Source of the DNA: Gallionella sp.
GTDB taxonomy: Bacteria; Pseudomonadota; Gammaproteobacteria; Burkholderiales; Gallionellaceae
Reading direction: 5' to 3'
DNA: 64,000 nucleotides
Assembly: GCA_049294375.1 (NCBI GenBank)
Contig: JBAQCT010000155.1
Coordinates: forward strand, 5,974-69,973
Shown here: positions 7,076 through 63,931 of the stretch, in pieces
How the letters are laid out: every line of letters starts with the position of its first letter
Position numbering within the stretch: the stretch's first letter is position 1
Made by a program: the position numbers and the translations under genes
Notes under the pieces: model-generated
Database searches by the model: none
What the model was told of the DNA's origin: nothing
The model's input: the letters and a program-made list of their open reading frames with translations, nothing else

Positions 7076-7093
7076 GCTCAGCTTTGGCTGAGC
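7076..7093. terminator. Short hairpin at the convergent atpC / glycosyltransferase junction (possible bidirectional terminator)
   Basis: GCTCAGC (7076-7082), loop TTTG, GCTGAGC (7087-7093): a perfect 7-bp stem. It overlaps the minus-strand stop codon at 7078-7080. There is no U-tract on either side, so intrinsic-terminator strength is doubtful. Confidence 0.35.
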
Positions 7094-8211
7094 AGTTCGC
7101 CGTAAAGCGCCAGTACGCCCTGAGTGATCTTGTCGCTGGGAAATAATTCCAGCGCACGCACCCTTGCCGCTTTGCCCATTTGCCGACGCAAATCCCTGTT
7201 TTCTATGAGTTCAAGCAAAGCATGCTTGAGTGCAGCGGTATCGCCCGCCGGAAACAGCAATCCTGTCTTGCCTTCTTCAATCGCATCGGTAATGCCGTAT
7301 ATTCGTGAAGCGACAGAAGGGACTCCACTTGCGCCGGCCTCAATAATGACTTGACCGAAACCCTCACGATGGCTTGGCAGGCAAAAAATGTCAGCGGTAG
7401 CCATGTAACGCTCAGGAGTAGGAGTGAAGCTAACTCTGCGCAACCTGTCGCTGTGCTTTCCGCAGATTGCTTGTAGGTTGACGAAAGGAAAATCTTCTTC
7501 GGCGCCCACCAGCACCAGCATGACATCGGCGTGATGCGACGCTATATCGGCAAATGCGGCGGCAAGCTCAGGCATTCCCTTGTCGCGGTTCAGCCTTCCC
7601 AAAAACAGGATTACAGTTTGCTCCAGGCCGATATTCAGCTCTGCGCGTACCGCTTTATTTGTTGGCATATTGGGGTGAAACCGATGTGCATCGATTCCGC
7701 AGATGGAGCCGTGCTCAATAACCATGCCCTTTCCTTGCGGCAAAACGCCTTCGGAAACCAGAAAGTCACGCTGCGAGGGGCTGTCCACCAGAATGTGCGT
7801 CGCAAACAAGACGATCAATTTGTCGAACTGTTTGAGTATCCGGCGCCTCCACCCGCGCTTGCTCGCCCAAACTTGCCCAGTAAAGGTATGGATCCGGTTC
7901 GGGACACCGGCCAGCCAGGCAGCCAGCATCGACAGAAATCCTGTTTTCGGCATGATGGAATGAACCAGATCGAAGCGTTCACGGCGGAACAACATCACGA
8001 GTTGAACCAAAGTTAGCAAATCGCGCCAAGGCGATACCTTGCGTTCGATAGACAGCGGGATGAAGGATGCAGGTATATCGCGCAACAGCTCGGCATCTAT
8101 GGGTGCGCTGACTATGCTGACCGTCCACTTTTGGGCACAGCTGCTGATATGCTCTTTCAAAAAGGAATGCAATACAGCCGGGACGGTTGCGACGAAGCAA
8201 AGCTTTTTCAT
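7078..8211 (-). CDS. Glycosyltransferase, GT-B fold (family 1/4-like)
   Basis: The C-terminal region CLPSHREGFGQVIIEAGASGVPSVASRIYGITDAIEEGKTGLLF is the classic GT4/GT1 E-x7-E donor-binding block. The track ORF runs to 8349. The likely start is the ATG at 8211 (MKKLCFVATV...), which sits directly after the upstream stop at 8213-8215. Confidence 0.85.
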   Translation of the reverse strand: MKKLCFVATVPAVLHSFLKEHISSCAQKWTVSIVSAPIDAELLRDIPASFIPLSIERKVSPWRDLLTLVQLVMLFRRERFDLVHSIMPKTGFLSMLAAWLAGVPNRIHTFTGQVWASKRGWRRRILKQFDKLIVLFATHILVDSPSQRDFLVSEGVLPQGKGMVIEHGSICGIDAHRFHPNMPTNKAVRAELNIGLEQTVILFLGRLNRDKGMPELAAAFADIASHHADVMLVLVGAEEDFPFVNLQAICGKHSDRLRRVSFTPTPERYMATADIFCLPSHREGFGQVIIEAGASGVPSVASRIYGITDAIEEGKTGLLFPAGDTAALKHALLELIENRDLRRQMGKAARVRALELFPSDKITQGVLALYGELLSQS

Positions 8212-8212
8212 T

Positions 8213-9172
8213 TTAATTCGCATGCTGTAATTTTTGCTTATATGCAGCCACCAGTTCGCGTAGCCCGTCTTCCATTGAAATAGCATGGCGATAATCCAGC
8301 TCTTGCTGAATGCGCAATATCGGATAAACCGAGCGATTATCCAGTGCATTGACTCTTGACGGGGTAAGGGGGAATCCGGGCATTTTGCCTAAAGTGATGG
8401 CGGCCAAATGTGAGATCGGCTTTGGAAGCCTTAGCCGTGGCGGTGGGCGGTCAAGCGCCCCGGCTATGGTTTCAACGAAATGCTCCATGGTGCAGTGATC
8501 GGAAAGGTTGTATACCCTACCTTTGGCTTGCTGCATGGTTCCGCAACGTATCAACCCATCGACCACATTATCGACATGAATGTAATTTGCGGATGAGCCG
8601 TGTTTCCCGATATAGAAAAACAGGCCACGGTCAATCATGGCGATCATGTTGAACAACGACTGGTTTGTCATTTTAGCGCCGAACACATTGGAGGGGCGCA
8701 AAATCGAATAGCTGAAGCCGCCTTTGCTTGCAGCTTCCATCACGATTCTGTCCGATTCGGCCTTGGTGATCTCATACTGCCCGACCGGGTTTAGCGGCGA
8801 ATCTTCCGTGACGATCCCTTGCATGACCGGGCCATACACACCGACACTGCTCAGTTGTACCCAATGGGGTACACGACGAGAGGCCGCTTCGGCCAGTTTA
8901 TGCGTCGCATCGACATGCAATGCGCGCATGGCATGCTGGTTCTTTAGTTGTCCCGCACAATGGTAAAGAACGTCTACGCCATTTAGCATGGCCGAGAGTT
9001 CGCTGGCTCCTGTTGTTATCAGGTCACATTCACGCACTTCAACGGCGGAGCGCTTTTCCGATAACATCGGACTGTGCCGCGTTAAGAGCCGAACTGTGTC
9101 ACCTTGTTCGACAAGGCGGGCGACAAGTTTTTTTCCAATAAAACCTGTTCCACCAGTGATTGCGATAATCAT
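8213..9172 (-). CDS. NAD-dependent nucleotide-sugar epimerase/dehydratase (extended SDR)
   Basis: N-terminal Rossmann ITGGTGFIGKKLV and catalytic YEITK (YxxxK). Confidence 0.85.
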   Translation of the reverse strand: MIIAITGGTGFIGKKLVARLVEQGDTVRLLTRHSPMLSEKRSAVEVRECDLITTGASELSAMLNGVDVLYHCAGQLKNQHAMRALHVDATHKLAEAASRRVPHWVQLSSVGVYGPVMQGIVTEDSPLNPVGQYEITKAESDRIVMEAASKGGFSYSILRPSNVFGAKMTNQSLFNMIAMIDRGLFFYIGKHGSSANYIHVDNVVDGLIRCGTMQQAKGRVYNLSDHCTMEHFVETIAGALDRPPPRLRLPKPISHLAAITLGKMPGFPLTPSRVNALDNRSVYPILRIQQELDYRHAISMEDGLRELVAAYKQKLQHAN

Positions 9173-9213
9173 CTCTGCCTATCCATCGAGTCCAGAGCAG
9201 CAGAAGCGCCCAC

Positions 9214-10113
9214 TTAGAATTTTGCGCCAAAAAATCGGCGTGTTGGGCCATTCCCCCAAAGAGCGGATGGGTCTGTGACAAAACCATGCAGGATCATCTT
9301 CAAACCTGCCCAGAAAGAGTCGGCGCTTAGGGTGGCGATCCCAAGCTTAATTTCTGCAATTGCCATTGTGCGACGATTGAGTCGGCGTGCCTTGGCGCTC
9401 AACTGCAGCGTATCAGCAGCTTGCTTGAATAGTAATAATAGTTCGTTAGCAATCAGGGTTTGATATTTTCTGGAGCGTGTCATGCTGGCAGTCAGCACTC
9501 TTAACTGACACAGGTAGTCAGCTATCATCGCAATTTTGGCGCGTTGAGCCAGCGCCAGCGTCAGTCCGAAGTCTTGCGCCCAGACTATATTTTCAGGATA
9601 TCCGCCCGCTTCATGCGCCAATTGGCACCGATACATGGCTGATGAATGGATAATCGGATTGGTCCACCCCAGACAATCCTGCAGCTCTTGCCGGTCGGAG
9701 GGCGGCTTGAATTCGTCAAATATTTTTCCTTTTTCATCAATATATTGCGCCCAAGAACCTACAAGTGCTACATCAGGGTGTTGCTTCAAAAATGCCACTT
9801 GTCTCGCCAGGCGATCAGGATGCGAAATATCGTCGGCATCGAGTACGGCTACAAACTCGCCGCGAATTTGCTGAAAGGCCTGTATCCTGGCTGGGCCGAG
9901 TTCAGTATGTTCACTGGCGTAAAAATACCGTATACGGCGATCAGCGTAGCTTTTGCAGATTGCTGCGCTATCGTCTGTCGACTGGTTATCCCAAAATACC
10001 AGCTCCCAATTCTGGTAGGTCTGAGCCAATACGCTGTCCAACGCTGCGCGAAGATACTTTTCTCCGTTGTAACAGTTCATCAGGACGCTGACGAGGGGTT
10101 GATCAAGCTGCAC
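9214..10113 (-). CDS. Glycosyltransferase family 2
   Basis: VSVLMNCYNGEKYLRAALDSVLAQTYQNWELVFWDNQSTDDS plus DxD (VLDADDIS). The track ORF extends to 10287 inside the upstream gene. The likely start is GTG 10113 or ATG 10080. Confidence 0.85.
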   Translation of the reverse strand: MQLDQPLVSVLMNCYNGEKYLRAALDSVLAQTYQNWELVFWDNQSTDDSAAICKSYADRRIRYFYASEHTELGPARIQAFQQIRGEFVAVLDADDISHPDRLARQVAFLKQHPDVALVGSWAQYIDEKGKIFDEFKPPSDRQELQDCLGWTNPIIHSSAMYRCQLAHEAGGYPENIVWAQDFGLTLALAQRAKIAMIADYLCQLRVLTASMTRSRKYQTLIANELLLLFKQAADTLQLSAKARRLNRRTMAIAEIKLGIATLSADSFWAGLKMILHGFVTDPSALWGNGPTRRFFGAKF

Positions 10114-11026
10114 CGTCTTGGTTCCTGTAATATTCGATAGCCCTCGCAAGACCCTCCTCAAGCGGCACCTGTGGTGACCAGCCGAGCAACTCATGCGCGA
10201 GATGGGTATCAGCCCACAGCGCCATATTTTCCCCCTGGCGGTATGGAATCTTTCCAAAATCCGGCTGCCCCTGCCCGACCAGTGCACAAACCTGTTCGAT
10301 CATGGAACGGATGCTCACCGGTATACCGGAAGCCAGGTTAATCACCTGACCACAGGCTTCCGGGGCGTGCAGCGCACGCAGAATACCCTCCACGATATCG
10401 TCTATATAGCAAAAATCCCGTAATTGCCTGCCTTCCGAGACTGGGAAACAACGATTCTGGAGGCAGCCGCGAATAACCTGAGGCAGGAAGCGCTTTGCAT
10501 CCTGCCCTGGGCCGTAGGCCAGAAAGATGCGCAGCGTCACGGACGGAAAGCGTTCGGTGCGCCAGAGCATTTGCAGAAAATGGGCAGCAGCTACCTTGGC
10601 CAGTGAGTAGGGCGAGATGGGCGCCTCGCGGATTGTCTCCGATTGCGGAGCTGCCGCTGCGCCGTATTCATCACCGCTGCCGATTTGCACAAAGCGTTTC
10701 AGGCAACTTAGATCAACAGTATCCAGGAGGTTTTGGACGCCTTCAAAATGTGCTGCGATAAGATCCCTGCCGCCTGAGAAGTAGGAGCGGTGGTCAACAT
10801 AACCGCCGCAATTCACCAGATATTCGAATGGTTTTTCTGCAAGCAGGCCTTTAAGTGGCTCGCGATCGGCAAGATTGGCAGACAGGTAGTTGACCCCATC
10901 AAGGCCTTCCGCAGGCGCGTGCATGGAAAGAGAGGTGACTGTATGTCCCCTCGCTTGCGCTATCCTGCAAAGATTGTGCCCGATGAATCCGGTTCCGCCG
11001 ACCACTAGCATCCGGTTTGCCGTCAT
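10103..11026 (-). CDS. NAD(P)-dependent sugar epimerase/reductase (extended SDR); candidate CDP-4-keto-6-deoxyhexose 4-reductase
   Basis: VVGGTGFIGHNL Rossmann and YSLAK catalytic motif. The reductase role is inferred only from position downstream of rfbF-rfbG-epimerase. Confidence 0.75.
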   Translation of the reverse strand: MTANRMLVVGGTGFIGHNLCRIAQARGHTVTSLSMHAPAEGLDGVNYLSANLADREPLKGLLAEKPFEYLVNCGGYVDHRSYFSGGRDLIAAHFEGVQNLLDTVDLSCLKRFVQIGSGDEYGAAAAPQSETIREAPISPYSLAKVAAAHFLQMLWRTERFPSVTLRIFLAYGPGQDAKRFLPQVIRGCLQNRCFPVSEGRQLRDFCYIDDIVEGILRALHAPEACGQVINLASGIPVSIRSMIEQVCALVGQGQPDFGKIPYRQGENMALWADTHLAHELLGWSPQVPLEEGLARAIEYYRNQDGAA

Positions 11027-11123: not shown

Positions 11124-11573
11124 TCATCGGTGTTTAATTGCCCAATCATAGGGAATCGAAGGATCAAAAGGATCGCGGCGGTCTATTTCATCCGGCGAAT
11201 GCGGGATAGTGGCGCAGTTTGCGACGACAGCCATTTCCTTGCCGATACCCTTGAATCCATTCCACACCATAGTTGGCACGGTTACCAAGCAGTAATTGTC
11301 CGGCCCCATGAAAATTTCCTGTATCTCGCCATGAGTCGGGCTGTTTGGCCGCTCATCATAGAGCACAAACTTGATATTGCCATGGGGCACGGCATAATTC
11401 AGCGTCATTTCCTTGTGGATATGCCAGCCTTTGATGGCTCCGGGATGGACGCAGGAAAAATAGATTTCGCCGAACTGCTGGAAGGCAGGGTCGCCAACCT
11501 TGAGCATATGCATCACCTTGCCGCGTTCATCAAGAATTTGGCGCAAGGGTGTAATTCTGACTCCCTCAATCAT
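11124..11573 (-). CDS. RmlC-like cupin sugar 3,5- (or 5-/3-) epimerase
   Basis: The pattern DERGKVMHML...IKGWHIHKEM...KFVLYDERPNSPTHGE...VPTMVWNGF matches the dTDP-4-dehydrorhamnose 3,5-epimerase family layout by eye. The likely start is ATG 11573 (MIEGVRITPL), which overlaps the rfbG stop by 8 nt. The track ORF runs to 11657. Confidence 0.75.
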   Translation of the reverse strand: MIEGVRITPLRQILDERGKVMHMLKVGDPAFQQFGEIYFSCVHPGAIKGWHIHKEMTLNYAVPHGNIKFVLYDERPNSPTHGEIQEIFMGPDNYCLVTVPTMVWNGFKGIGKEMAVVANCATIPHSPDEIDRRDPFDPSIPYDWAIKHR

Positions 11574-12645
11574 CAACTTTCTCCATATAACATTCAATTT
11601 GTTCATTGCTGACCTTAACCGCCGGTTCGCCCGCAAGCACAGCTCGATACCAGTCAACGGTCTTGCTCACCGTCGCATCGAAATCCCAGCGCGGCCGCCA
11701 GCCCAGTACATGGCGCGCCTTGTCGCAATTCAAATGCAGCAGCCCTGCTTCATGCGGATCGCTGGCCGCACCCCGTATTTCAATCTTTCCCGAGCCCCAG
11801 CGCTCAATAATTTTCTGCGCCAATGCGTGCACGGTTTGCGTCGCCTCTCCATCCGGCCCAAAATTCCATGCTCCCGAAAATCGTGCAGGATCCCGCGCCA
11901 GCGCCGCAGCCAAAGCCATGTAGCCGCCCAGTGGTTCCAGCACATGCTGCCATGGCCGGGTAGACTGCGGCTTGCGCAGCACAATCGGTTCGCTGTTACG
12001 CAGGGCACGCAAACAATCCGGCACGATCCGGTCATCCGACCAGTCGCCGCCCCCAATCACATTGCCGGCGCGCACACTGGCATAGCCGAATCCTGGGCGC
12101 GATTGAAAAAATGAATTACCGTAGGCAGAAAGCACCAGCTCCGCCGCCGCCTTGGAAGCGCTATAAGGGTCATGGCCGCCCAATTCATCGTTCTCGCGGT
12201 AGCCCCATATCCATTCTCTGTTGCGATAGCACTTGTCCGACGTAATGTAGACGAGTGATTTCACCGAAGGTGTCTCGCGCACGCATTCAAGCAAATTCAC
12301 AGAACCGCCTATATTGGTATCGAACGTCTCCTTTGGGTCGCGGTAAGACCGCCGCACCAGCGCCTGCGCGGCAAGATGGAACACGAATTCGGGCTGTGCC
12401 GATTGGAAAAAAGCGCCCAGTCCGGCGCGGTCGCGGACATCACCATCATGGTGTGTAATGCGATCGCGCAAACCCAGTAAATTGAAGTGATCATCCTCGC
12501 GTTCAGCAGGCAATGCGTAACCGTAGACCTCGGCACCTGCCCCGGTTAGCCACAAGGCCAGCCATGAGCCCTTGAAACCAGTATCCCCGGTCAGCAAGAC
12601 ACGCTTGCCTCGAAATAAGGCAACGGCGGCTACCAGATCATCCAT
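11566..12645 (-). CDS. rfbG: CDP-glucose 4,6-dehydratase
   Basis: Hallmark blocks GKRVLLTGDTGFKGSWLALWL, ITSDKCYRNREWIWGYRE, YSASKAAAE, VRAGNVIGGGDW and RPWQHVLEPL. These match enterobacterial RfbG/DdhB closely from memory. Confidence 0.93.
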   Translation of the reverse strand: MDDLVAAVALFRGKRVLLTGDTGFKGSWLALWLTGAGAEVYGYALPAEREDDHFNLLGLRDRITHHDGDVRDRAGLGAFFQSAQPEFVFHLAAQALVRRSYRDPKETFDTNIGGSVNLLECVRETPSVKSLVYITSDKCYRNREWIWGYRENDELGGHDPYSASKAAAELVLSAYGNSFFQSRPGFGYASVRAGNVIGGGDWSDDRIVPDCLRALRNSEPIVLRKPQSTRPWQHVLEPLGGYMALAAALARDPARFSGAWNFGPDGEATQTVHALAQKIIERWGSGKIEIRGAASDPHEAGLLHLNCDKARHVLGWRPRWDFDATVSKTVDWYRAVLAGEPAVKVSNEQIECYMEKVDD

Positions 12646-13424
12646 GGTGCCTGCTTTTTTTCCAAGAGGTTATTCAGCAACTGCCAATCGCGATAGGTAT
12701 CCATGCACTGCCAGAATCCGTCATGCTCATATACGGCAAGCTGCCGATCACGTACCAGCGCCCTCATCGGCTCCTGCTCAAAGACGAGATCATCGCGTTC
12801 ATCCAGATAATCGAACAATTCACGTCGGCAGACGAAGAAGCCGCCCGAAATCCATCCGCCAGTCGCTTGAGGCTTTTCATTGAACTCGGTCACCAAACCT
12901 TGACTGTCTGCCATCAGTTCACCAAAACGTCCCGGCGGCCTGACGCCGGTTACCGTAAGAATACGGCCATGGCTTTTATGAAATGCCAGCAGGGCATCCA
13001 AATCAATATTGCTTACCCCATCGCCATAAGTCAGAAAAAAATGTCCATCTTCTTCAAGATACTGGCGAATCTTGCGGATGCGCCCGCCGGTCAGGGTCTC
13101 CGGCCCAGTATCCGCCAGCGTTACTCGCCAGTCTGTTTCTTCATGGTTGGTGTGGAATTCGACGGATTTGTTCGCCCCCAGTGTCACCGTGCAGTCGCGG
13201 GTATAAGCCTCGTAATTGAGGAAAAAATCCTTGATGGTCTGCCCCATGTAACCTAGGCACAGGATAAAGTCCTTATGGCGATAGCTGGCGTAATATTTCA
13301 TCAGATGCCAGAGGATTGGGAGTTGTCCAATAGGAATCATCGGCTTGGGAATATTGTCTGCGACATCGCGTATGCGAGTGCCGCGCCCGCCGCAAAGAAT
13401 GACCGTTTTTAAGGTGCCACGCAT
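12630..13424 (-). CDS. rfbF: Glucose-1-phosphate cytidylyltransferase
   Basis: VILCGGRGTRIRD...PKPMIPIGQLPILWHLMKYY...LTGGRIRK...TYGDGVSNIDL...GFWQCMDTYRD: typical RfbF/DdhA. Confidence 0.93.
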   Translation of the reverse strand: MRGTLKTVILCGGRGTRIRDVADNIPKPMIPIGQLPILWHLMKYYASYRHKDFILCLGYMGQTIKDFFLNYEAYTRDCTVTLGANKSVEFHTNHEETDWRVTLADTGPETLTGGRIRKIRQYLEEDGHFFLTYGDGVSNIDLDALLAFHKSHGRILTVTGVRPPGRFGELMADSQGLVTEFNEKPQATGGWISGGFFVCRRELFDYLDERDDLVFEQEPMRALVRDRQLAVYEHDGFWQCMDTYRDWQLLNNLLEKKQAPWMIW

Positions 13425-13475
13425 GTTATTTATTTCCCTGATTTAATTGTAAAATATGGTGCATAATTATCGCGA

Positions 13476-19764: not shown

Positions 19765-19769
19765 ATGTA

Positions 19770-22716: not shown

Positions 22717-22942
22717 GTCGGGCAGCTTCGTTAAAGAAGGTTTTTTAAATTTTCTATGTAATTCAATTACATGGCTAGAGTAATGTTTGATTGGAGTGGC
22801 TATCTGGAGGCACGGAAGATAGCCGCTGACCATTACGTTAATTGTACTGCTGGTTTTGCACAATCGTTAACAAATCGTTATATGCGAAAGCGGGGCATGC
22901 ATGGTTTTTCATCATGCAGGAGTTTAGCTGTCAGTTTGGTTG

Positions 22943-47682: not shown

Positions 47683-47729
47683 AGGGGGCGAGTCGCGGCA
47701 AGGCCAGAACTTGATCCCGGGTGAAGGCT

Positions 47730-56027: not shown

Positions 56028-56028
56028 G

Positions 56029-57597
56029 TTATTGCCCATCGTAACGGTATAGGGTGTGCGTTTCCACACGATGAATTTTCTTTCTGACGGCCTCGGGCGT
56101 CACCGGCCAATTGCCATCGTGCTCGCATTCCACACCAGACGCCATGCAGCCCAGTATGGACGCAATAGCCTCATTCTTGGTGGCGATCATGGCAAGTGTC
56201 GCATATGCCAGCATCGCATCGCCGGCGCCGACAGCATCCACAACTTGCTCGACAAAGCTGTCGATGGCGAAAAAGGCTTGGTAGTCCTCCTGCGGCCTCG
56301 AACGATAGGTAATTATGCCGCGCTCGCCCATTTTGAGGATCAGCGTCTTGCATTTCGAGCGGTGGTATAACTCGCGCGCAAGCGGGCGTACCACCGAATC
56401 TTGATCCCCCAGCGCAAACCGGGCTTCGCGCTCATTCGGGGTAATCAGGTCGAACCCTTCGAACTCGAGAATATTGCCCCAGCGGCTCGCCACCTGACTG
56501 TCAGCGACACGGTAAGCATCGGGCGGAATTGCCGAAACTAGATCGGGAATCGTGTTCCGGTTGAATATGCCGTGGCGGAAATCGCTGAATGCGACCGCAT
56601 CCGCCTTGTTCTGGGATATTTGTTTTTTTAACTGCTCCACGTTCTTGCCGGAAATAGAACGGTTGTCCAGAGTATCGACCTTGAGTAACCGGTAGCCTTC
56701 CGCAACAATGGCGTTTTTGTTGGTGGTCGGACGTGTCTCGTCGATGATGGCATGAACCTCAACGCCGGCTTTTTCGAGATCATCAAGCACGAAGTCCTTC
56801 AGCGCATCATTGCCGAGTACCGTGGAAAATGTTACCTCCGCCCCCGCTGCCTTGAGGTGCTTCGCAACGATTGCAGCACCTCCGACATAATCGACTTTCT
56901 TTTGAAACAGCACGCTTATGGTCGGCGTCTTGGTCATGCCGCCGATCATGTTGCAATAGGTATAGCTGTCGACAATGGTGTCACCGACGACGTGGACTTT
57001 AATGCCCTTGTATTTGTTAAGGGCTCCATAGAGGTCGCTGAAACCGATGCCCTCTGCTGCCATGAGAGACATCAGTTTTTCAGTGGCAATCTTGGGCGGG
57101 GCGAGCTCGATCAGCGCCGAGGAAGAGTAAACGATGTCGCCTGGGGTGAAGAGAACTTCGCCGCCATAGGTTTCCAGAACTTGCATTTCTTCTTGGGTTC
57201 TGGGATCTATTCCGCTGCTGGAATATTCGTATCCCTTGGCGAAATAATCGGGCTGGATGATGCCCAGATTTTCGAGCGGTGTTGGCTGGTGGTCGATGAT
57301 GACAAAATCGACTACTTCCAGCGCAGCCAGGTTGATTGCCCGCAAATCCTCTGGAACGTAGGGGCGAAAATTTGCTTTCTTGATGTGCTCGTCCGAGGTG
57401 AGGCTTGCGATCAGAATGTCACCCTTTGTCTTTGCGTACAGCAGATGCCGTACATGCCCCGGATGAACCACATCGAATGCCCCGTGACACATGATCACTT
57501 TTTTCCCCCGCGGCCGCGGCCGCGGCCCGATGATTGCGCAAAGCTGTTCTACCGTCTTGATCTTGCGCTCAACCAGATTTTTGCTTGTCTGATCCAT
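56029..57597 (-). CDS. Bifunctional nucleotidyltransferase / PfkB sugar kinase (HldE-like, but with domain order reversed)
   Basis: The N-terminal cytidylyltransferase-fold block is VIMCHGAFDVVHPGHVRHL (GxFDxxHxGH). The C-terminal ~330 aa is ribokinase/PfkB-like, ending in DAVGAGDAML. Confidence 0.85.
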   Translation of the reverse strand: MDQTSKNLVERKIKTVEQLCAIIGPRPRPRGKKVIMCHGAFDVVHPGHVRHLLYAKTKGDILIASLTSDEHIKKANFRPYVPEDLRAINLAALEVVDFVIIDHQPTPLENLGIIQPDYFAKGYEYSSSGIDPRTQEEMQVLETYGGEVLFTPGDIVYSSSALIELAPPKIATEKLMSLMAAEGIGFSDLYGALNKYKGIKVHVVGDTIVDSYTYCNMIGGMTKTPTISVLFQKKVDYVGGAAIVAKHLKAAGAEVTFSTVLGNDALKDFVLDDLEKAGVEVHAIIDETRPTTNKNAIVAEGYRLLKVDTLDNRSISGKNVEQLKKQISQNKADAVAFSDFRHGIFNRNTIPDLVSAIPPDAYRVADSQVASRWGNILEFEGFDLITPNEREARFALGDQDSVVRPLARELYHRSKCKTLILKMGERGIITYRSRPQEDYQAFFAIDSFVEQVVDAVGAGDAMLAYATLAMIATKNEAIASILGCMASGVECEHDGNWPVTPEAVRKKIHRVETHTLYRYDGQ

Positions 57598-57600: not shown

Positions 57601-58602
57601 TTAACGATCCTCCGAAGATAATGTAGCAAACCAAGTCGTCGTCGCCTTGGCGATGGTTTCTGGATCCCACAAAGGCGCGTTGCGCCAATATTCGATATTA
57701 TCGCGAATGCGCCTCACGCCTTCTTCAAAGCTTATCTCCTGCTTCCAGCCCAGTTGGGTCTGGATTTTAGTGATGTCTGCCCAGGTGCAATCGGGTTCAC
57801 CAGGCCGTTTTGGAATATGTATTACCGATCCGCCGAGCAATTCGACCAAGCGATTTATACTCTGTGGATTTCCTGCGCCGAGATTGTAGATCTCTCCGGC
57901 ACGCTTGGTTTCGGCAGCACTGTAAAAGGCGCGCGCAACGTCGGTTGCATACAGGAAATCGCGCGACTGCGCGCCATCGCCCACGACGGTAAAGGGCTTT
58001 CCTTCCAGTTTCTGCCTTAGAAAAACGCCGAATACCGCACCATAGGCGCCTGATGTTCGCGAACGCGTGCCGTAGGCGTTAAATATTCGGATCGAATTGA
58101 CCGGCAATCGATATACCTGATGCCAGTGGAAGCAGGCCTGCTCGCCTTGATACTTGCTCAGTGCATACGGATACTGCGGTGCAATCGGATGGTCTTCGCG
58201 CGTCGGCACCTTCGCGAGGCCGTAGCATGAAGACGATGCGGCGTAGACAAATTTTTGTACCCCGGCATGTCGTGCACACTCGAGCATGTGTACCGTACCC
58301 TGAACATTTGTAGACATGTACTCGATCGGCTGTTCGATAGAAGGCACTATATCGCCGACCCCGGCGAAATGAAATACATACTTCGCATCCTTGAAGAATT
58401 TGTCCCCGGCCGCAAAGCTGCGAATATCGCGCCGCTCAAGCGCTAGTGGACAATTCTGGTGGTGGGAAAGATTTTCTTCGCGACCGCCCACAAGATTATC
58501 GATTACTCGAACCTCGAACCCCTTCTCGACAAGCAAATCAACCATGTGACTGCCGATGAAACCGGCACCGCCCGTAACGATGGCGATAGGGCGAGCCGTC
58601 AT
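57601..58602 (-). CDS. NAD-dependent nucleotide-sugar epimerase/dehydratase (extended SDR)
   Basis: VTGGAGFIGSHMV Rossmann, YALSK catalytic motif. 333 aa. Confidence 0.88.
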   Translation of the reverse strand: MTARPIAIVTGGAGFIGSHMVDLLVEKGFEVRVIDNLVGGREENLSHHQNCPLALERRDIRSFAAGDKFFKDAKYVFHFAGVGDIVPSIEQPIEYMSTNVQGTVHMLECARHAGVQKFVYAASSSCYGLAKVPTREDHPIAPQYPYALSKYQGEQACFHWHQVYRLPVNSIRIFNAYGTRSRTSGAYGAVFGVFLRQKLEGKPFTVVGDGAQSRDFLYATDVARAFYSAAETKRAGEIYNLGAGNPQSINRLVELLGGSVIHIPKRPGEPDCTWADITKIQTQLGWKQEISFEEGVRRIRDNIEYWRNAPLWDPETIAKATTTWFATLSSEDR

Positions 58603-58754
58603 TTTGCGCCTACCACTTTCATCGTGCGCGCGTTGCGATAGCGGGTGCCGAAGATAATGTCAAAAACGGCAACATCCAAACCCTCTTCGAGCAACTGCGG
58701 CATCAATATCCTTCCGTAGTAGCCTGCCCGGCCAACTGCCAATGCCTTTTTCAT
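58599..58754 (-). CDS. Small ORF (51 aa) encoding only a Rossmann beta-alpha-beta unit; possible remnant of a displaced SDR gene or a coupled leader ORF
   Basis: Hand translation: MKKALAVGRAGYYGRILMPQLLEEGLDVAVFDIIFGTRYRNARTMKVVGAK. An AAGGGGA Shine-Dalgarno sits 4-5 nt upstream of ATG 58754. Its TGA overlaps the ATG of the next gene (ATGA at 58599-58602). It is below the 60-aa cutoff of the ORF track. Confidence 0.3.
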   Translation of the reverse strand: MKKALAVGRAGYYGRILMPQLLEEGLDVAVFDIIFGTRYRNARTMKVVGAK

Positions 58755-58834
58755 ACCGTCCCCTTAATATTTGCAGATTGCGAGTTTGCGATAATTCAAA
58801 CGACCTAGTTGTTCCTGGTGCGAGAGAATCGAGA

Positions 58835-59563
58835 TCAAGATGTAAGCGCAATTTTGTATCCGGCAGCTTGAGCGTCCGTGTGGAACATCTGGACGGTTTC
58901 GAGCGAATATTGTTCCAGATCCTTGTCGACCAGGGAAAGCTTCTTCAGGATGTCGTTTGTAGCGGTGATGATATGGCACCCGACTGAGTCGGCCTGAAAA
59001 ATATTGAACAGCTCGCGCGGGCTGGCCCAGATCAGTTCGGACCTTGGTTTTGCGCGCATGATTTTTACGGCTTCCGCCATTAACGGAACCGGGTCGCGCC
59101 CCGTGTCGGCAATGCGCCCCGCAAACACGGAAATGATTGCCGGTGTGTCCGGTGCGAGTCGCTCTGTAACGCTCTTCACTTGATCGAGCGAGGTCAGGGC
59201 AGTGACGTTAAGTGAGACCCCTGCATTCGATAAGCTTTCGATCAGAGAGCCGGCAAACTCTTTTCTGGTATTGGTTACCGGAATCTTGACACTCACATTT
59301 TTGCCCCACGATGCGATCTCCAGCGCTTGGCGCTCCATTTCATCGAACTCGTCGGCGAATACCTCAAACGAGATTGGCATATCCGGTACTGCTTCGAGCA
59401 CCTGGTGCGCAAATGCCTTGTAGTCCTGCACACCTGCCTTGCGCATTAGCGTCGGATTGGTGGTGAAACCCTTGATCAACGGGTTGGCGTACATTTCCCT
59501 TATTCCGGCAAGATCAGCCCCGTCGGCAAAAAGTTTTATTTTAAGACTTGCAATCGTGCTCAT
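58835..59563 (-). CDS. Transaldolase / fructose-6-phosphate aldolase-family (short type) enzyme
   Basis: KLFADGADL...GFTTNPTLM...VSVKIPVT (Schiff-base Lys region)...VTALTS family blocks. Confidence 0.88.
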   Translation of the reverse strand: MSTIASLKIKLFADGADLAGIREMYANPLIKGFTTNPTLMRKAGVQDYKAFAHQVLEAVPDMPISFEVFADEFDEMERQALEIASWGKNVSVKIPVTNTRKEFAGSLIESLSNAGVSLNVTALTSLDQVKSVTERLAPDTPAIISVFAGRIADTGRDPVPLMAEAVKIMRAKPRSELIWASPRELFNIFQADSVGCHIITATNDILKKLSLVDKDLEQYSLETVQMFHTDAQAAGYKIALTS

Positions 59564-59587: not shown

Positions 59588-60112
59588 TCATTTTTGAAAA
59601 ATCAGTCTGCTCGCGTCTTCAAGCGATACGACCACCGCGTCCGGATTATCGGCGCGGCGCTCCCGGTATTCATAATCGATAAAAAAAGTGTAGCAGCCTG
59701 CCGCTTTTCCAGCAGCCACGTCACGCCATCGATCCCCTACAATAAAACTGCGCGCGAGGTCTATATGCCATTCGCGAGCTGCTTCAATCAGCATTCCAGG
59801 TTTTGGCTTGCGGCAATCGCAGCCGCTTGCATCCACGTGATAACACACCTTGATGTCATCGCATAATCCTGCTGCGCGCAGCTTATCGTGCATCGCCTCC
59901 ACCACTTCCCGGCGCTGGACTCCCGTGGCGACATCGGGCTGGTTCGTGACAACAACGATCAAGAAGCCGGCTTTGCGCAGAGCACGCATCGCGCGTTCGG
60001 CTCCCGGGAGAAGCTCGAAATCATCGATAGTAGCCGGAGGATATGGTATTCCGTCGCGCACCACAGCGCGATTGATGACACCATCACGATCGAGGAACAC
60101 CGCTCTTTTCAC
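59588..60112 (-). CDS. gmhB: D-glycero-D-manno-heptose 1,7-bisphosphate phosphatase (HAD)
   Basis: VFLDRDGVIN (DxD), VVTNQPDVA, Zn-loop CYHVDASGCDCRKPKPGM, and GDRWRDVAAG. Confidence 0.9.
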   Translation of the reverse strand: MKRAVFLDRDGVINRAVVRDGIPYPPATIDDFELLPGAERAMRALRKAGFLIVVVTNQPDVATGVQRREVVEAMHDKLRAAGLCDDIKVCYHVDASGCDCRKPKPGMLIEAAREWHIDLARSFIVGDRWRDVAAGKAAGCYTFFIDYEYRERRADNPDAVVVSLEDASRLIFQK

Positions 60113-60154: not shown

Positions 60155-60736
60155 TTACCATTTCGTTGCGATTTGCTGCAGGCCGGGATGCGACACGAGG
60201 CAATGCCAGACTACCGCCTGAAATGCTTCGGTGTGTGGAGTAATTCTGGTGTCGTCTATAGTGGGGATAACGATCACGGCATCGCCAACCTGTTTGGTAT
60301 AGCCGCCATCACGCCCAACCACCCCCATTATTGTTAGCTCACGGGTTTTGGCTTCTTTAAGAGCTTGTACGATGTTGGTGCTTACATTCTTTTCCACGTT
60401 ACCGCCGCCGACCGAAAATACGAACACCGCATCGTTTGAATTGGCTTTACTGGTGCGCAACCACGCGGCGAAAACAGTCTCCCACCCTTCATCGTTGGTG
60501 CGAGCGGTCAATTCCGATACATTATCAACAGGCGTATAAGCCTCAATACCGCAAAGTTTGCGAAAGTCGTTTACCGCATGACTACAGTTCGCCGCGCTGC
60601 CACCAACCCCTAACAAGAATAATCGTCCTCCGCGTTTGCGAAGAGCTGACAGTTCGGAAACCATCCTTTCTATTGCCGTTACATCAATCGATTTTGCTAT
60701 TTCACTTACTTCTTCAAAATATTTTTTCGTGTGCAT
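60155..60736 (-). CDS. gmhA: SIS-domain sedoheptulose-7-phosphate isomerase
   Basis: 193 aa. GGRLFLLGVGGSAANCSHAVNDF SIS block, and context next to gmhB and the HldE-like gene. Confidence 0.85.
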   Translation of the reverse strand: MHTKKYFEEVSEIAKSIDVTAIERMVSELSALRKRGGRLFLLGVGGSAANCSHAVNDFRKLCGIEAYTPVDNVSELTARTNDEGWETVFAAWLRTSKANSNDAVFVFSVGGGNVEKNVSTNIVQALKEAKTRELTIMGVVGRDGGYTKQVGDAVIVIPTIDDTRITPHTEAFQAVVWHCLVSHPGLQQIATKW

Positions 60737-60802: not shown

Positions 60803-61897
60803 TTAAATAAAATTTACATGCTGAACGGGATTTTCGCATAACTGGAAGAGATAGCGATTAACTTCGTCCATGCGGCAATTCTTTCGGCAGTCTTTGATGT
60901 TCAATTCATTGCGAACAAAGAAGAAACTCTGGCGCCGTCGCTCGCCTTCCCATATTTCTTTGAAACTTTGCTCATTCACGTTGCCATATTCGAATCGCTT
61001 GTCTTCGAGATACGCGCTGCAACCATAGACTCTCCCATCGGTCATGATATGCGCCCAGACGAACGGTGTGGACAGGCACTTGGTATAGCGCTCCGAGTCC
61101 TGGACGTATTTTTTCATAGTGTTGGCGCGACAGATCAGCGAAAAGAAATCAGTTGACAAGGGTTCCAGCTTCTCGGCTATGGCTGTGTATGCGGAGTAAT
61201 CGACATCATGCTGGTTTTGGCTAAAAAGGTGCTGGGAGTACGGCTTGACCACCAAGTAATCAAGACCTATTTCGTCACGGCACAGCTTGGCTAGAGCCTC
61301 TATTTCGTGGGCGTTTTCCGGTATGAGCAAAATTTGGGCGCCAATCGTGCAATCGAGATGATTGGAATTTCGATAATTAATCGCCTTTTTCAAATTTTCT
61401 ATGACTCTTGAGAAATCGCGTTCGCGTGTACGATGAATCCTGGCGTAGGTGTCTGCCGTTCCCGCATTGACGGATGCCTTTATCCATGACACATGTCGAA
61501 TGGACTTCTGAATAAATTCATCATTTAACAATGTGGCGTTGGTCTGAAAGGCCATGTCAATGCCAGCATTCTTTGTCATCTCGACAATTTCGTTGATCTT
61601 CTTGTGCAGCAAAGGCTCTCCTTCGCCGGCATACATTATGCTCTTGACGCCTAAAGCACCCATTTCTGGTAGAAGGCGCTCCAGCATTTTAATGTCATAC
61701 ATGATCGACTTGTAGCCGATGTAATCATAAGCACAAAAAGTGCAGCGATGATTGCAGGCACCGACTGGAGACATTTCCACATAAATGGGATAGACGGCCT
61801 TCGCTTTTTCCCAGTCGCCACCCGCATCCATCAGTTGAGCGACCCGCTTGGGGTGGTACATGAGTTTGTGGCTATCGATACGAAAAATGTCGGACAT
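60803..61897 (-). CDS. Radical SAM enzyme with C-terminal SPASM/twitch-like domain
   Basis: CNHRCTFC motif. C-terminal [20 protein letters not shown]...CRKNC. Confidence 0.85.
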
Positions 61898-61927
61898 CGT
61901 TATGCTTTTCTGAGGTTTGAAATAAAG

Positions 61928-63724
61928 TCAGGCATTGAGCATCTGCTTGAATGTTTCATTGGATCCCACCAATTCCTGAAAGGTGCCATGCTGCACTATT
62001 TTGCCATGATCGAGGAGGTAGATCACATCGCAATCTTTTACCGTAGTCAAGCGGTGTGCAATCATGACGATGGTGATTTTGTGAGACAGCGCTTGAATAG
62101 TATCGATAATAATGCGCTCTGTGATCCCGTCCAGAGCGCTGGTAGCTTCATCCAACACCAACACTTTGGGGTTGTGGTAAAGCGCACGGGCGATGCCGAT
62201 GCGCTGACGTTGTCCGCCACTCAGTCGCACGCCCCGCTCTCCTACGATGGTTTGATAATTATTAGGGAGTTCCAGAGTTACGAAGTCATGTAAATTGGCA
62301 ATGCGCGCGACCTCTTCCACTCGTACCATGTCAATGGAATTTGCCGGGCAGCCCAACGCAATATTGCTCGCAATCGTATCATCCACCAAGTAGATTTGCT
62401 GGGGAACATACCCCACATTTTTTTGCCAGCTTTTTACGTTTGATGGAGTAATTCTTTTGCCGTCCACGCGCATTTCCCCTGCTTGCGGCTCGAGTAAACC
62501 AAGGATGATGTCGATAAGCGTTGATTTCCCCGAGCCGGTTGTGCCAACCAATCCGATGGAGGTGTTATTTTTGATACAGAGCGAGAGATTATTGATAACC
62601 GGTGAGTCGCATTCCGGGTAAGTGAAGAAAACGCTGTCAAGCTTAATATCTCTAGAGTAAGGCATTGCCTCTTGTGGGCATACGTAAGTAGAAAATGTAA
62701 CGGGTAAACTGCTCAAATCCCTTTTTAGATTCTGAAGGGCTGGAAAGGTATAACGGATATTAGAAAGGCTTTGAAAAATTTGCTGGATCGCCGGTAGCAT
62801 CCGGTAGCCTGCGAAGGCATACAAAGCGATCAATGGAAAAGCGATAGAAATATCCTTTCTTAACCCGAGCAAATAAACCAGAATCAGCAGCATTCCGCCA
62901 AACGCCATGGACTCTATGGCATATTTTGGCAGCAAAGAAAGTGTGTAGCCGATTACCTTGTAGCCGGCCTGAAGTTTTGATGAAATGGAAAACCGCTCGA
63001 CAAAGGCCTGTTCTTTTCCGAGTAGCTTGATTTCTTTGGCACCGCCCAATGCTTCATTGGTGAATTTGTAGTTTTGCGTATTTGCTTCGGAGGAAAGTTG
63101 TCCATTATCCAGCAACTTGCGTCGAATCAAAATGTATGTGACCGAATATGCCGTACCAATGATCAAGGCAACCGTTATGGCCAGTAGCGGGTCAATAAAC
63201 ATCAGCATGATCAGCATCAGCAAAACTACCATAGCTTTAGTGATGAGCTGCATTACCGGAATGATTGCTCCGGTAACTACGGTTTCGGTTTCTGTAAGGA
63301 TATTTTTGGATAATATGGCGCTATTTGTACGCAAGAAAAAAGGAAAAGGTTGAGCCAAGTAAGAAGTTAACAAGCGCTCTGCCAATTTTTGCTCAAAAGC
63401 AAAGGCAAAACGGTATAGCATCCATGCAGACAGTGCGGAAATAGCATTGCCAGCCATCATGATAAAGAAAAATATAAGTCCGGCTAAAAACAAAAAGCGG
63501 TTAATGCTGGAAAATCCCATATAGGTATACATGGAATGAATATACTGGTTGGTTTGTATGATTTCCGGCTTGGCGACGATAGCCATAAAGGGCATTATGG
63601 AGACAACGCCCATAACCTCAATGATTGAGGTTAGAAAAATCACAAATAGCAATACTAATGCTTGCTTACGATCACTATGGCTAAATAGCGATAAAATGTC
63701 GCGTAAGGGGGGTAATAAAAGCAT
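61928..63724 (-). CDS. Half-size ABC exporter (fused TMD-NBD, MsbA/PglK-like)
   Basis: About six N-terminal TM helices. Walker A GTTGSGKST, signature LSGGQRQR, Walker B VLVLDEATSALD. First gene of the cluster. Confidence 0.9.
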   Translation of the reverse strand: MLLLPPLRDILSLFSHSDRKQALVLLFVIFLTSIIEVMGVVSIMPFMAIVAKPEIIQTNQYIHSMYTYMGFSSINRFLFLAGLIFFFIMMAGNAISALSAWMLYRFAFAFEQKLAERLLTSYLAQPFPFFLRTNSAILSKNILTETETVVTGAIIPVMQLITKAMVVLLMLIMLMFIDPLLAITVALIIGTAYSVTYILIRRKLLDNGQLSSEANTQNYKFTNEALGGAKEIKLLGKEQAFVERFSISSKLQAGYKVIGYTLSLLPKYAIESMAFGGMLLILVYLLGLRKDISIAFPLIALYAFAGYRMLPAIQQIFQSLSNIRYTFPALQNLKRDLSSLPVTFSTYVCPQEAMPYSRDIKLDSVFFTYPECDSPVINNLSLCIKNNTSIGLVGTTGSGKSTLIDIILGLLEPQAGEMRVDGKRITPSNVKSWQKNVGYVPQQIYLVDDTIASNIALGCPANSIDMVRVEEVARIANLHDFVTLELPNNYQTIVGERGVRLSGGQRQRIGIARALYHNPKVLVLDEATSALDGITERIIIDTIQALSHKITIVMIAHRLTTVKDCDVIYLLDHGKIVQHGTFQELVGSNETFKQMLNA

Positions 63725-63919
63725 GGATGGGCAGAATTGCTAAAAAATTTTGGTTCGTGATAGTTGCACTTAAATACGGCAGGATGTTTATCGAAATCTT
63801 GGTTACCGAAAAGGCGATTTGAAGCGAAAGCTGCTAAACAGAACCCTGGCCTAATGTTGCGGCATAGTTTAATCGGCAACTGTCAGATTAAGCCTGAACT
63901 ACTGTGCATGCTTTTCAGG

Positions 63920-63931
63920 CACGCTACCGCC
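63920..63931 (-). promoter_or_regulatory. ops / JUMPStart core element (putative RfaH-type antiterminator loading site)
   Basis: The minus strand reads GGCGGTAGCGTG, an exact match to the enterobacterial ops consensus GGCGGTAGnnTG. It lies ~195 nt upstream of the first start codon of the cluster, on the non-template strand. Confidence 0.55.

Follow-up and report, generated by a model that had tools for sequence, protein, structure and literature searches.

This study concerns a run of 52 genes, all on the minus strand, which fills positions 7078-63724 (56.6 kb) of a 64-kb window of Gallionella sp. DNA (positions 5,974 to 69,973 of the 72,420-bp contig JBAQCT010000155.1, assembly GCA_049294375.1; the window is the whole stretch that was analyzed, and all coordinates refer to it). 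The run, numbered from the first gene g52 down to g1, ends against the ATP synthase operon and is headed by a leader carrying an exact copy of ops, the pause signal at which the antitermination factor RfaH is recruited. The explanation towards which we lean, if only modestly, is that the run is a horizontally assembled, hypervariable, O-antigen-like surface-glycan locus of an uncultured, iron-oxidising Gallionella, that its transcription, over most or all of its length, would start at a promoter upstream of 63931 and yield a single very long unit or a small number of units, and that its sugars would be assembled on a lipid carrier and flipped by the ATP-binding cassette (ABC) protein g52.

The ops leader

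The leader comprises the following features.

63920-63931, minus strand: ops element GGCGGTAGCGTG (RfaH recruitment/pause signal; 3' half of a JUMPstart-like sequence), exact match
63725-64000, minus strand: non-coding AT-rich leader 5' of g52, 276 nt, no open reading frame (ORF)

In Escherichia coli the 12-nt ops sequence is GGCGGTAGCGTG, and every validated RfaH operon carries ops in its leader (PMC5995543); at this element the polymerase pauses and takes up RfaH, and RfaH in turn counteracts both pausing and Rho-dependent termination across long operons of horizontal origin (PMC5995543, PMC2871177, PMC7593976). We took as ops the 12-nt sequence GGCGGTAGnnTG on the non-template strand of a transcribed leader, and it was found at 63920-63931. 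All 12 of its 12 positions agree, it reads on the coding strand with the g52 ATG following 196 nt downstream, and no second exact copy occurs in the window. By our own calculation the chance expectation of an exact ops in the 276-nt leader is about 2e-5, and the Rfam JUMPstart model gave a partial match at this place. Furthermore, the orthologous leader was recovered from two other assemblies, on contigs L126 (97% nucleotide identity) and L124 (87.5%), and in the alignment of the three leaders the element with its flanks, CGCCAGTATTTTGCAGGGCGGTAGCGTGCCTG, was invariant and formed the most conserved block, the remainder having diverged. Of the evidence available, this exact and conserved ops in the leader speaks most strongly for a single long antiterminated operon.

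The first-pass annotation of this DNA, made by a model from the letters alone, had called the run a super-operon and had missed the element. The ops leader lends support to that description, while transcription as a single unit is what we infer from a profile that a long operon would fit: ops, low GC content at third codon positions (GC3), tight packing and no excess of terminator-like sites. The end coordinate given by that annotation, 63931, is the last base of ops, an element that its text does not mention. Three ops-like sequences also lie inside g50 and g42 on the minus strand, namely GGCGGTAACGTG (one mismatch) and two GGCGGTAG cores, at 60395-60406, 60211-60218 and 51853-51860; against 1.2 expected, this is no more than chance. 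Contigs L124 and L126, although from different samples, start within 2 nt of each other, some 21-23 nt beyond window position 64000 and just upstream of the leader, which suggests that assemblies break off at the edge of the island because of a repeat or of a junction that varies between strains.

Layout and reality of the gene run

The coding share of the run is 97.2%. Counted on the longest ORFs, 21 of the 51 junctions overlap and 41 measure 50 nt or less, in agreement with the first-pass statement that most junctions are under 50 nt and at least 16 overlap; the six ATGA and one TAATG overlaps that it listed read exactly so on the minus strand, and its overlaps of 7-17 nt fit in-frame start codons, with a Shine-Dalgarno-like motif at several (g3 at 10113, g5 at 11573, g22 at 30879, g26 at 34787). 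Strict co-directionality, also claimed there, was borne out by the tiling of the ORFs and by a Pfam search with the 10 largest plus-strand ORFs within the run, none of which gave a match, so that they are regarded as shadow ORFs. Ten gaps exceed 50 nt, the biggest being 280 nt (25760-26039) and 232 nt (58603-58834), with gaps of 113 and 101 nt among the others. No tRNA gene was detected in the window by ARAGORN, and Rfam gave no match at the gathering score. Per-gene GC varies from 0.40 to 0.57 across the locus, and GC3 is 0.41-0.65 as against 0.69-0.74 in the neighbouring atp genes. Only 9 nt separate the stop of the plus-strand gene atpC from that of the convergent minus-strand gene g1 (7066-7080; atpC stop at 7068), too little for a terminator to fit between the ATP synthase operon and the run.

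Misassembly of the metagenome-assembled genome (MAG) was ruled out, as the gene order is repeated at 95-97% nucleotide identity in Logan contigs from other sequencing runs, each covering its part in one piece: L126 (51929-64000, 97.3%), L127 (9523-25010, 95.4%) and L128 (11180-16454, 95.7%). The source MAG is public and the locus is undescribed. The proteins of the contig are MFZ2302796.1-MFZ2302841.1 (locus tags from WAW10_13120 onward). Here g52 is 100% identical to MFZ2302841.1 and g17 to MFZ2302805.1 (locus tag WAW10_13165), the run proteins are mostly named generically or as 'hypothetical' by NCBI, and our literature search found no paper on Gallionella surface-glycan loci or on this locus. 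At 5222-6619 lies the gene of the ATP synthase beta subunit, which shares 92% identity with those of Gallionella and Gallionellaceae MAGs.

Biosynthetic content of the run

The inventory of the first pass held up well under family searches. The CDP-, GDP- (ManC g30), CMP- (NeuB g29) and nucleoside diphosphate (NDP)-heptose-type (GmhA/GmhB/HldE-like set g50, g49 and g46) activation chemistries are all represented by family matches, as are the five aminotransferases (DegT proteins g21, g28, g36, g41 and g42, by Pfam), the seven radical S-adenosylmethionine (SAM) enzymes (B12-binding g11, g19 and g31; SPASM-type g14, g25, g33 and g51) and the four cytidylyltransferase-fold genes (three CTP_transf_3 proteins and the CTP_transf_like domain of g46). 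The methyl-transfer enzymes, put at up to eight, number seven (two FkbM, two class-I and three B12-radical SAM), with g20 as a candidate eighth. Curated NCBIfam cut-offs were exceeded by g6, g7, g30, g32, g44 and g48.

The export and heptose genes are:

61928-63724, minus: g52, fused transmembrane domain (TMD) and nucleotide-binding domain (NBD) ABC exporter, PglK/MsbA type, putative lipid-linked-glycan flippase (Pfam ABC_membrane and ABC_tran)
60803-61897, minus: g51, radical SAM/SPASM enzyme (Pfam); accompanies g52 and g47 in relatives at 63-64% amino acid identity
60155-60736, minus: g50, SIS-domain sugar-phosphate isomerase, GmhA-like (Pfam SIS_2; NCBIfam gmhA 54 bits, below cut-off)
59588-60112, minus: g49, HAD-IIIA phosphatase, GmhB-like (heptose 1,7-bisphosphate phosphatase model 126.5 bits, cut-off 178)
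58835-59563, minus: g48, transaldolase (TIGR02134 355.8 bits, above cut-off 282)
58599-58754, minus: 51-aa ORF (MKKALAVGRAGYYG...), like the Rossmann-fold N-terminus of a short-chain dehydrogenase/reductase (SDR) by its sequence
57601-58602, minus: g47, SDR NDP-sugar epimerase/4,6-dehydratase family (Pfam Epimerase 197 bits; GalE, LegB and RmlB below cut-off)
56029-57597, minus: g46, nucleotidyltransferase plus PfkB kinase, HldE domains in reversed order (CTP_transf_like at residues 37-129, PfkB at 200-484; rfaE domains I and II below cut-off)
55098-56069, minus: g45, GFO/IDH/MocA oxidoreductase (Pfam)
53815-55101, minus: g44, nucleotide-sugar 6-dehydrogenase (TIGR03026 209.9 bits, above cut-off 189.8)
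52912-53811, minus: g43, SDR epimerase/reductase (Pfam)
51716-52810, minus: g42, DegT-family sugar aminotransferase (Pfam 373 bits)
50590-51693, minus: g41, DegT-family sugar aminotransferase (Pfam 321 bits)
49873-50523, minus: g40, class-I SAM methyltransferase (Methyltransf_11)

With its six hydrophobic segments, g52 is the sole multi-transmembrane protein of the locus in a hydropathy scan. No Wzx, Wzy, Wzz or Wzm/Wzt was found in the run by Pfam and hydropathy, so a Wzx/Wzy cluster is not what we see here, and neither was a separate Wzm/KpsM permease with a Wzt/KpsT ATPase nor any other ABC2_membrane-type permease; a group 2 capsule locus was rejected as a candidate, KpsMT/KpsDE being absent. 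Transaldolase g48 with g50, g46 and g49 would provide a route from sedoheptulose-7-phosphate to NDP-heptose, which may be further oxidised, aminated and methylated by g47-g40. The 51-aa ORF lies in the 232-nt gap and is stop/start-coupled (ATGA) to g47, and L126 has an ORF of equal size at the corresponding position. It is likely to be a gene remnant and may represent a recombination scar or a small gene.

The transketolase genes and ManC follow:

49008-49859, minus: g39, transketolase N-terminal half, binding thiamine diphosphate (ThDP) (Pfam, NCBIfam)
48104-49018, minus: g38, transketolase pyrimidine-binding and C-terminal half (Pfam, NCBIfam)
47633-48086, minus: g37, NUDIX hydrolase, frameshifted, frame -3 at 48086-47733 and frame -1 at 47752-47633 (Pfam NUDIX; tblastn with the 151-aa L082 orthologue)
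46435-47682, minus: g36, DegT-family aminotransferase (Pfam)
45656-46441, minus: g35, AAC(3)-fold N-acetyltransferase (Pfam Antibiotic_NAT 139 bits; resistance-gene models below cut-off)
44505-45659, minus: g34, FkbM-family methyltransferase (Pfam, NCBIfam)
43512-44501, minus: g33, radical SAM/SPASM enzyme (Pfam)
42271-43521, minus: g32, TIGR04372-family glycosyltransferase (158.6 bits, cut-off 45; same NCBI name)
40475-42157, minus: g31, B12-binding radical SAM enzyme, putative C-methyltransferase (Pfam, NCBIfam)
38988-40451, minus: g30, ManC, mannose-1-phosphate guanylyltransferase/mannose-6-phosphate isomerase (TIGR01479 578 bits, above cut-off 373)

By its score g30 is a bona fide ManC, which would supply GDP-mannose. 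The g39/g38 pair may, together with transaldolase g48, supply sedoheptulose-7-phosphate, or it may instead add a C2 unit to a keto-sugar, by analogy with known branching enzymes. The NUDIX gene g37 is frameshifted near 47735-47750, its L082 orthologue being intact at 151 aa; this is either a true pseudogene or a sequencing or assembly error of the MAG.

The ulosonic-acid genes are:

36717-38963, minus: g29, 748-aa CBS-NeuB-SAF-xylose-isomerase-like TIM barrel fusion, ulosonic acid synthase (Pfam NeuB 280 bits)
35450-36631, minus: g28, DegT-family aminotransferase (Pfam)
34784-35446, minus: g27, CMP-ulosonic acid synthetase-type cytidylyltransferase (CTP_transf_3; PseF 118 bits, below cut-off 206)
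33717-34802, minus: g26, iron-containing alcohol dehydrogenase (Pfam)
32720-33751, minus: g25, radical SAM/SPASM enzyme (Pfam)
31636-32736, minus: g24, soluble protein, candidate GT-B transferase with a KLHP motif (no Pfam, NCBIfam or PDB match)
30872-31639, minus: g23, CTP_transf_3 cytidylyltransferase (Pfam, NCBIfam)
29902-30921, minus: g22, GFO/IDH/MocA oxidoreductase (Pfam)
28617-29918, minus: g21, DegT-family aminotransferase (Pfam)
27938-28669, minus: g20, small protein, candidate methyltransferase; NCBI start 28597, 219 aa (no family match; 90% in L123)
26040-27893, minus: g19, B12-binding radical SAM enzyme (Pfam, NCBIfam)
24803-25759, minus: g18, class-I SAM methyltransferase (Methyltransf_23)
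22943-24781, minus: g17, GT-B-fold protein, divergent LIC12162-family relative, candidate ulosonic-acid transferase (AlphaFold2 model and homologue tags)
21733-22863, minus: g16, D-2-hydroxyacid dehydrogenase, PGDH-like (Pfam, NCBIfam)
20927-21694, minus: g15, CTP_transf_3 cytidylyltransferase (Pfam, NCBIfam)
19770-20930, minus: g14, radical SAM/SPASM enzyme (Pfam)

The NeuB fusion g29 scored 306 bits with the TIGR03569 NeuB model (cut-off 399.65) and 231 bits with PseI (cut-off 340), both below equivalog level. Among the matches listed it has at least 120 full-length relatives of 60-95% identity, the named ones from cyanobacteria and Burkholderiales, with no specific functional name. Pfam gave no Epimerase_2, Glyco_tran_28_C, GNAT or hexapeptide match among the 52 proteins, i.e. 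no NeuC/LegG/PseG hydrolase or PseH/LegH acetyltransferase; relative L120 carries a PseG-like gene. Since the NeuB, PseI and PseF cut-offs are not reached and no NeuC, PseG or PseH gene was seen, the product should not be canonical N-acetylneuraminic (Neu5Ac), legionaminic (Leg) or pseudaminic (Pse) acid. From the gene content of g14-g29 we would expect CMP-ulosonic acids, made through the NeuB fusion and the three cytidylyltransferases, with amino, N-acyl and radical-SAM/B12 methyl decorations.

The remaining genes, which include the CDP-hexose set, are:

19024-19794, minus: g13, SDR (Pfam)
18154-18987, minus: g12, FkbM-family methyltransferase (Pfam, NCBIfam)
16616-18154, minus: g11, B12-binding radical SAM enzyme (Pfam, NCBIfam)
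15683-16612, minus: g10, SDR epimerase/dehydratase family (Pfam)
15021-15686, minus: g9, HAD phosphatase (Pfam)
13476-15017, minus: g8, 513-aa protein, family of about 930 representatives with invariant H386-P387, candidate GT-B transferase (weak evidence)
12630-13424, minus: g7, glucose-1-phosphate cytidylyltransferase (TIGR02623 311.8 bits, above cut-off 300.25)
11566-12645, minus: g6, CDP-glucose 4,6-dehydratase (TIGR02622 473 bits, above cut-off 278)
11124-11657, minus: g5, RmlC-like cupin, 3,5-epimerase type, probable start 11573 (Pfam dTDP_sugar_isom 36 bits; 149-aa gene in L127)
10103-11026, minus: g4, SDR epimerase/reductase (Pfam)
9214-10287, minus: g3, GT2 glycosyltransferase, probable start 10113 (Pfam Glycos_transf_2 117 bits)
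8213-9172, minus: g2, SDR epimerase/reductase (Pfam)
7078-8349, minus: g1, GT4 glycosyltransferase, last gene (Pfam Glycos_transf_1 118 bits)

Judged by these scores, g7 and g6 are a bona fide CDP-glucose pair. The best scores of the DegT proteins with the RfbH (E1) dehydrase model were 102-154 bits, below its cut-off of 423, so that the set for a CDP-3,6-dideoxyhexose was not found; the g7/g6 pair with an RmlC-like cupin and reductases and no RfbH points to a CDP-6-deoxyhexose (g7-g4).

The statement that the run has only two canonical glycosyltransferases turned out to be an undercount: besides the GT4 protein g1 and the GT2 protein g3, g32 passes the TIGR04372 cut-off and g17 has a GT-B fold, with g8 and g24 as weaker candidates. 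We found 24 homologues of g17, and 8 of the 23 non-self ones bear a precomputed PF27859 (LIC12162) tag; g17 aligned with one tagged member at a BLASTP E of 0.04 and had no direct Pfam, NCBIfam or PDB sequence match. Its confident alignment-based AlphaFold2 model (predicted local distance difference test score, pLDDT, 88; predicted template modelling score, pTM, 0.88) gave MurG, BshA, UDP-GlcNAc 2-epimerases and TagF as top Foldseek matches, with CalG also among the matches, which places it in the GT-B superfamily. As this fold also spans nucleotide-sugar hydrolases and epimerases, g17 is likely, and not proven, to be a transferase. In Herbaspirillum seropedicae AU14040 a LIC12162-family transferase follows neuABC in the lipopolysaccharide (LPS) island (PMC6679464). 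The g24 protein and the g8 family appear to be distant relatives (hhalign probability 54%, E 1.3e-4, K-x-HP site included), and the g8 family matched the C-terminal domain of g17 weakly (hhalign probability 26%). A single-sequence AlphaFold2 model of g8 reached a pLDDT of 32, Pfam matches over its family were weak and confined to 2 of 39 members (Epimerase_2, DUF6716), and PDB sequence searches with g8, g17, g24 and the g8-family profile returned nothing significant; a match to the 3-deoxy-D-manno-octulosonic acid (Kdo) transferase WbbB at E 1.4 was not used as evidence. The presence of three cytidylyltransferases beside three such proteins (g8, g17 and g24) is weakly suggestive.

Relatives of the locus and its mosaic origin

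Directly after atpC the close relative L003 has glmU and glmS, both in the direction of atpC, and L002 has ORFs of matching sizes at that place. This answers, for the two closest relatives inspected, the question raised by the first pass as to what adjoins atpC when the island is missing. Homologues of the cluster were found within 10 kb downstream of atpC in 0 of 80 betaproteobacterial relatives. Parts of the run are present in environmental contigs:

L082, groundwater contig: g40-g26 collinear at 79-96% amino acid identity; lacks ManC g30; also has g46 and g51 orthologues
L123, environmental contig: g25-g17 collinear at 80-96% amino acid identity; no difference noted
L122, 106-kb contig: g28-g17 collinear at 45-78% amino acid identity; g19 orthologue (11896-13749) inverted
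L120, L121 and L125, environmental contigs: g52 at 76-84% amino acid identity; L120 and L121 keep g51 and g47 (56-84% over g52, g51 and g47), then a diverged heptose/transketolase set

Blocks g52-g42, g40-g26 and g29-g17 recur in environmental contigs with the modules differently arranged among relatives, and g18-g3 recurs in a near-identical strain. In L120, L121 and L125 a LIC12162-family gene precedes the ABC gene, and L120 and L121 also have a 353-aa NeuB, a B12 radical SAM enzyme and other co-directional sugar genes before it. The inversion of g19 in L122 means that strict co-directionality is not universal for the g28-g17 block. ManC g30 has the B12 radical SAM gene on one side and the NeuB fusion on the other, and collinear L082 shows a 338-nt gap (9663-10000) at that place; on this comparison its presence or absence is a single-gene insertion or deletion. 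Taken at the level of gene order, the modules change places from one strain to another, which is also how antigenic glycan loci behave. The word 'unprecedented', used earlier for this mix of chemistries, was therefore too strong, as blocks recur collinearly elsewhere and the signature families come from the Leptospira O-antigen locus; that the run corresponds to no characterised locus stands, since we found neither a near-identical characterised locus nor a solved glycan that would match, and no characterised counterpart of the chemistry as a whole.

Proposed pathway and alternative explanations

We propose that RNA polymerase would pause at the leader ops, where an RfaH-type specialised NusG paralogue would load, and that the modified polymerase would resist pausing and Rho termination across 52 tightly packed, low-GC3 genes. 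Cytoplasmic enzymes would make NDP-heptose, CMP-ulosonic acid, GDP-mannose and CDP-6-deoxyhexose derivatives, which the GT4, GT2 and TIGR04372 transferases with g17, g24 and g8 would assemble on a lipid carrier, the initiating transferase being encoded elsewhere. The finished glycan would be flipped by the PglK/MsbA-type protein g52 and attached to lipid A-core by a ligase encoded outside the window.

Several results weigh against this proposal. At the leader, the Rfam JUMPstart model RF01707 scored 25 bits (E 0.002), below its gathering score of 35, the ops half being perfect and the hairpin replaced by 3 nt. The ABC gene of relatives L120, L121 and L125 has other genes ahead of it, and ops was not found within 10 kb. 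The promoter scan, like the terminator scan, performed at chance level and did not locate a leader promoter, and hence these scans cannot define transcription units. The ten gaps longer than 50 nt, together with a sigma-70-like site in the g43/g42 gap, make internal promoters possible. That site, CTGTCA-17-TATAAT (10 of 12 positions; 52878-52850, minus strand; 101-nt gap), is the best internal promoter candidate. On the side of the enzymes, the best NCBIfam model for g52 is PglK at 329 bits, far under the equivalog cut-off of 1000, with MsbA and HepA scoring nearly as high; no initiating phosphoglycosyltransferase, ligase or oligosaccharyltransferase was found in 7078-63724, and these may be encoded elsewhere. 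The identities of the sugars are not fixed, as the NeuB, PseF, GmhA, GmhB and HldE models are all under their equivalog cut-offs (in the NDP-heptose set g50, g46 and g49 four activities are represented, every model below cut-off and the HldE order reversed), and it is from weak profile matches that g8 and g24 are taken as candidate transferases. Apart from these points, and as to the wider distribution of the signal, ops was seen in none of 83 loci examined nor in L120-L122, a scan of Joint Genome Institute (JGI) metagenomes with g52 gave only relatives of 47% identity or less, none with ops upstream, Pfam detected no NusG/KOW domain among the 52 run proteins, and the supplementary text of a paper on RfaH distribution does not mention Gallionellaceae.

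The run could also be a co-directional patchwork of independently acquired modules with their own promoters and separate products (a heptose glycan, an ulosonic-acid glycan and a CDP-hexose side chain), in which ops would serve the first module only. This we regard as doubtful, though it deserves serious thought. It would account for the mosaic composition, for the blocks found alone or reordered in other contigs, for the absence of ManC from L082 and the inverted g19 in L122, and for the long gaps (280, 232, 113 and 101 nt) with their promoter-like site, and the gene remnant and the frameshifted NUDIX gene could then be read as recombination scars. Yet all 52 genes lie on one strand with most junctions short, a single transporter and a single ops serve the entire run, terminator-like sites are not in excess (the only intergenic one, at 52870-52858, is weak), and a modular origin is compatible with co-transcription. 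The first-pass annotation had named a patchwork of independently transcribed loci as the finding that would overturn it; a mosaic origin is indeed supported, whereas independent transcription is not established. At the other extreme stands the unlikely case that a single RfaH-dependent transcript spans all 52 genes (56.6 kb), and that the uncharacterised modules of the run make sugars for which no pathway has been described. The run would then count as one of the longest operons known to be under ops control, and as the first described from an iron-oxidising betaproteobacterium. Such sugars might be C-branched or chain-extended heptose derivatives, for which the reversed HldE-like enzyme, the SPASM radical SAM enzymes and the split transketolase would be responsible, and C-methylated, multiply aminated ulosonic acids, which would come from the NeuB-TIM-barrel fusion, the iron-containing alcohol dehydrogenase and the B12 radical SAM enzymes; g8/g24 and g17 would represent new GT-B families that transfer them.

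We think it quite unlikely that the run is a protein-glycosylation island (flagellin, pilin or general O-glycosylation) whose ulosonic-acid modules decorate surface proteins. Its NeuB, CMP-transferase, DegT and methyltransferase sets do resemble those of Pse/Leg flagellin islands (PMC3958885, PMC9290775), and the best model of g52 is a protein-glycosylation flippase in a run that has no Wzx, Wzy or WaaL. However, no flagellar or pilin genes occur in the 64 kb, no Maf-type (PF01973) or oligosaccharyltransferase match was found among the 52 proteins, and the only published context that we found for the LIC12162 family is the Herbaspirillum LPS island (PMC6679464). A flagellin glycosylation island in particular was rejected, there being neither flagellar nor Maf genes. 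A very improbable possibility is a secondary-metabolite cluster for an aminoglycoside- or nucleoside-like glycoside exported by an ABC pump: the AAC(3)-fold acetyltransferase, B12-radical SAM methylases, DegT set, NDP-heptose route, NUDIX protein and ABC exporter are also met with in antibiotic clusters, but no cyclitol synthase, resistance methyltransferase or regulator was found here, while three CMP-ulosonate synthetases with NeuB and the GT2, GT4, TIGR04372 and LIC12162-type transferases are hallmarks of cell-surface glycans and module shuffling between strains is typical of antigenic loci. The lack of a cyclitol synthase led us to reject an aminoglycoside-like cluster. Leaders with ops/JUMPstart are classically those of LPS and capsule operons, which speaks against protein glycosylation.

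If the ops leader works as it does in E. coli, RfaH-type antitermination would operate with an unchanged 12-nt signal far outside the enterics and on an unusually long operon, and the locus would offer a natural test bed for polymerase processivity over more than 50 kb. As a source of enzymes, the seven radical SAM proteins, the NeuB fusion, the reversed HldE and the three transferase candidates could yield new nucleotide-sugar chemistry. The shuffling of modules from strain to strain suggests serotype-like diversification, perhaps under phage or grazer pressure; more speculatively, an abundance of acidic, aminated and methylated sugars in the envelope glycan of Gallionella could have to do with how iron oxidisers escape mineral encrustation.

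Comparison with known systems

In the H. pylori O-antigen pathway, which is of the Wzk type, a fused ABC half-transporter carries the complete lipid-linked glycan across the membrane. As in PglK/Wzk-type pathways, of which Campylobacter jejuni N-glycosylation is an example, a fused TMD-NBD ABC protein with PglK as its best model is the only membrane protein of the present locus, and there is no polymerase or chain-length regulator. The locus differs from them in the low PglK score of g52, in having no PglB, PglL or WaaL in the window and in a sugar chemistry unrelated to bacillosamine or Lewis antigens. With nonulosonic acid (Neu/Leg/Pse) modules it shares a NeuB-family synthase, CMP-transferases, DegT aminotransferases and an adjacent LIC12162-type GT-B protein. 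Here, in contrast, the synthase is a 748-aa fusion, Pfam shows no NeuC/LegG/PseG or PseH/LegH, and a sugar outside the canonical set is implied by the extra iron-containing alcohol dehydrogenase, GFO oxidoreductase and SPASM and B12 radical SAM enzymes. Addition of a two-carbon branch to keto-sugars by ThDP enzymes is known from YerE in yersiniose O-antigens and from two-component enzymes in avilamycin and paulomycin (PMC4753412); g39/g38 is likewise a ThDP enzyme pair amid NDP-sugar-modifying genes, but its members are transketolase halves and not acetolactate-synthase-like or pyruvate-dehydrogenase-E1-like.

The TIGR04372 family is one that we take to derive from proteins of the Leptospira O-antigen locus, and LIC12162 (PF27859) and Lept_O_ant_chp1 (in relative L081) are Leptospira-derived by name. 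The Leptospira rfb locus ranges from about 4 kb to more than 100 kb, is highly variable and is thought to be transferred horizontally between lineages (PMC13111663); it has Wzx/Wzy, the rhamnose set rfbABCD and a MarR regulator at its 5' end (PMC10958091). The Gallionella run is similarly very large and highly variable, but it lacks Wzx/Wzy, rfbABCD and MarR and has instead a single PglK-type ABC exporter and an ops leader.

The enterobacterial RfaH/ops operons (rfb/wb*, waa, cps and kps) differ from the present run in host, which here is a Gallionellaceae iron oxidiser, and in the JUMPstart hairpin half, which is missing here; the locus is also some 2-5 times longer than typical enterobacterial RfaH operons. 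In common with them it has the exact 12-nt ops on the non-template strand of the leader and a first gene with no recognisable Shine-Dalgarno motif (here by a crude motif score), and like them it is long, co-directional, foreign in composition and given to surface polysaccharide.

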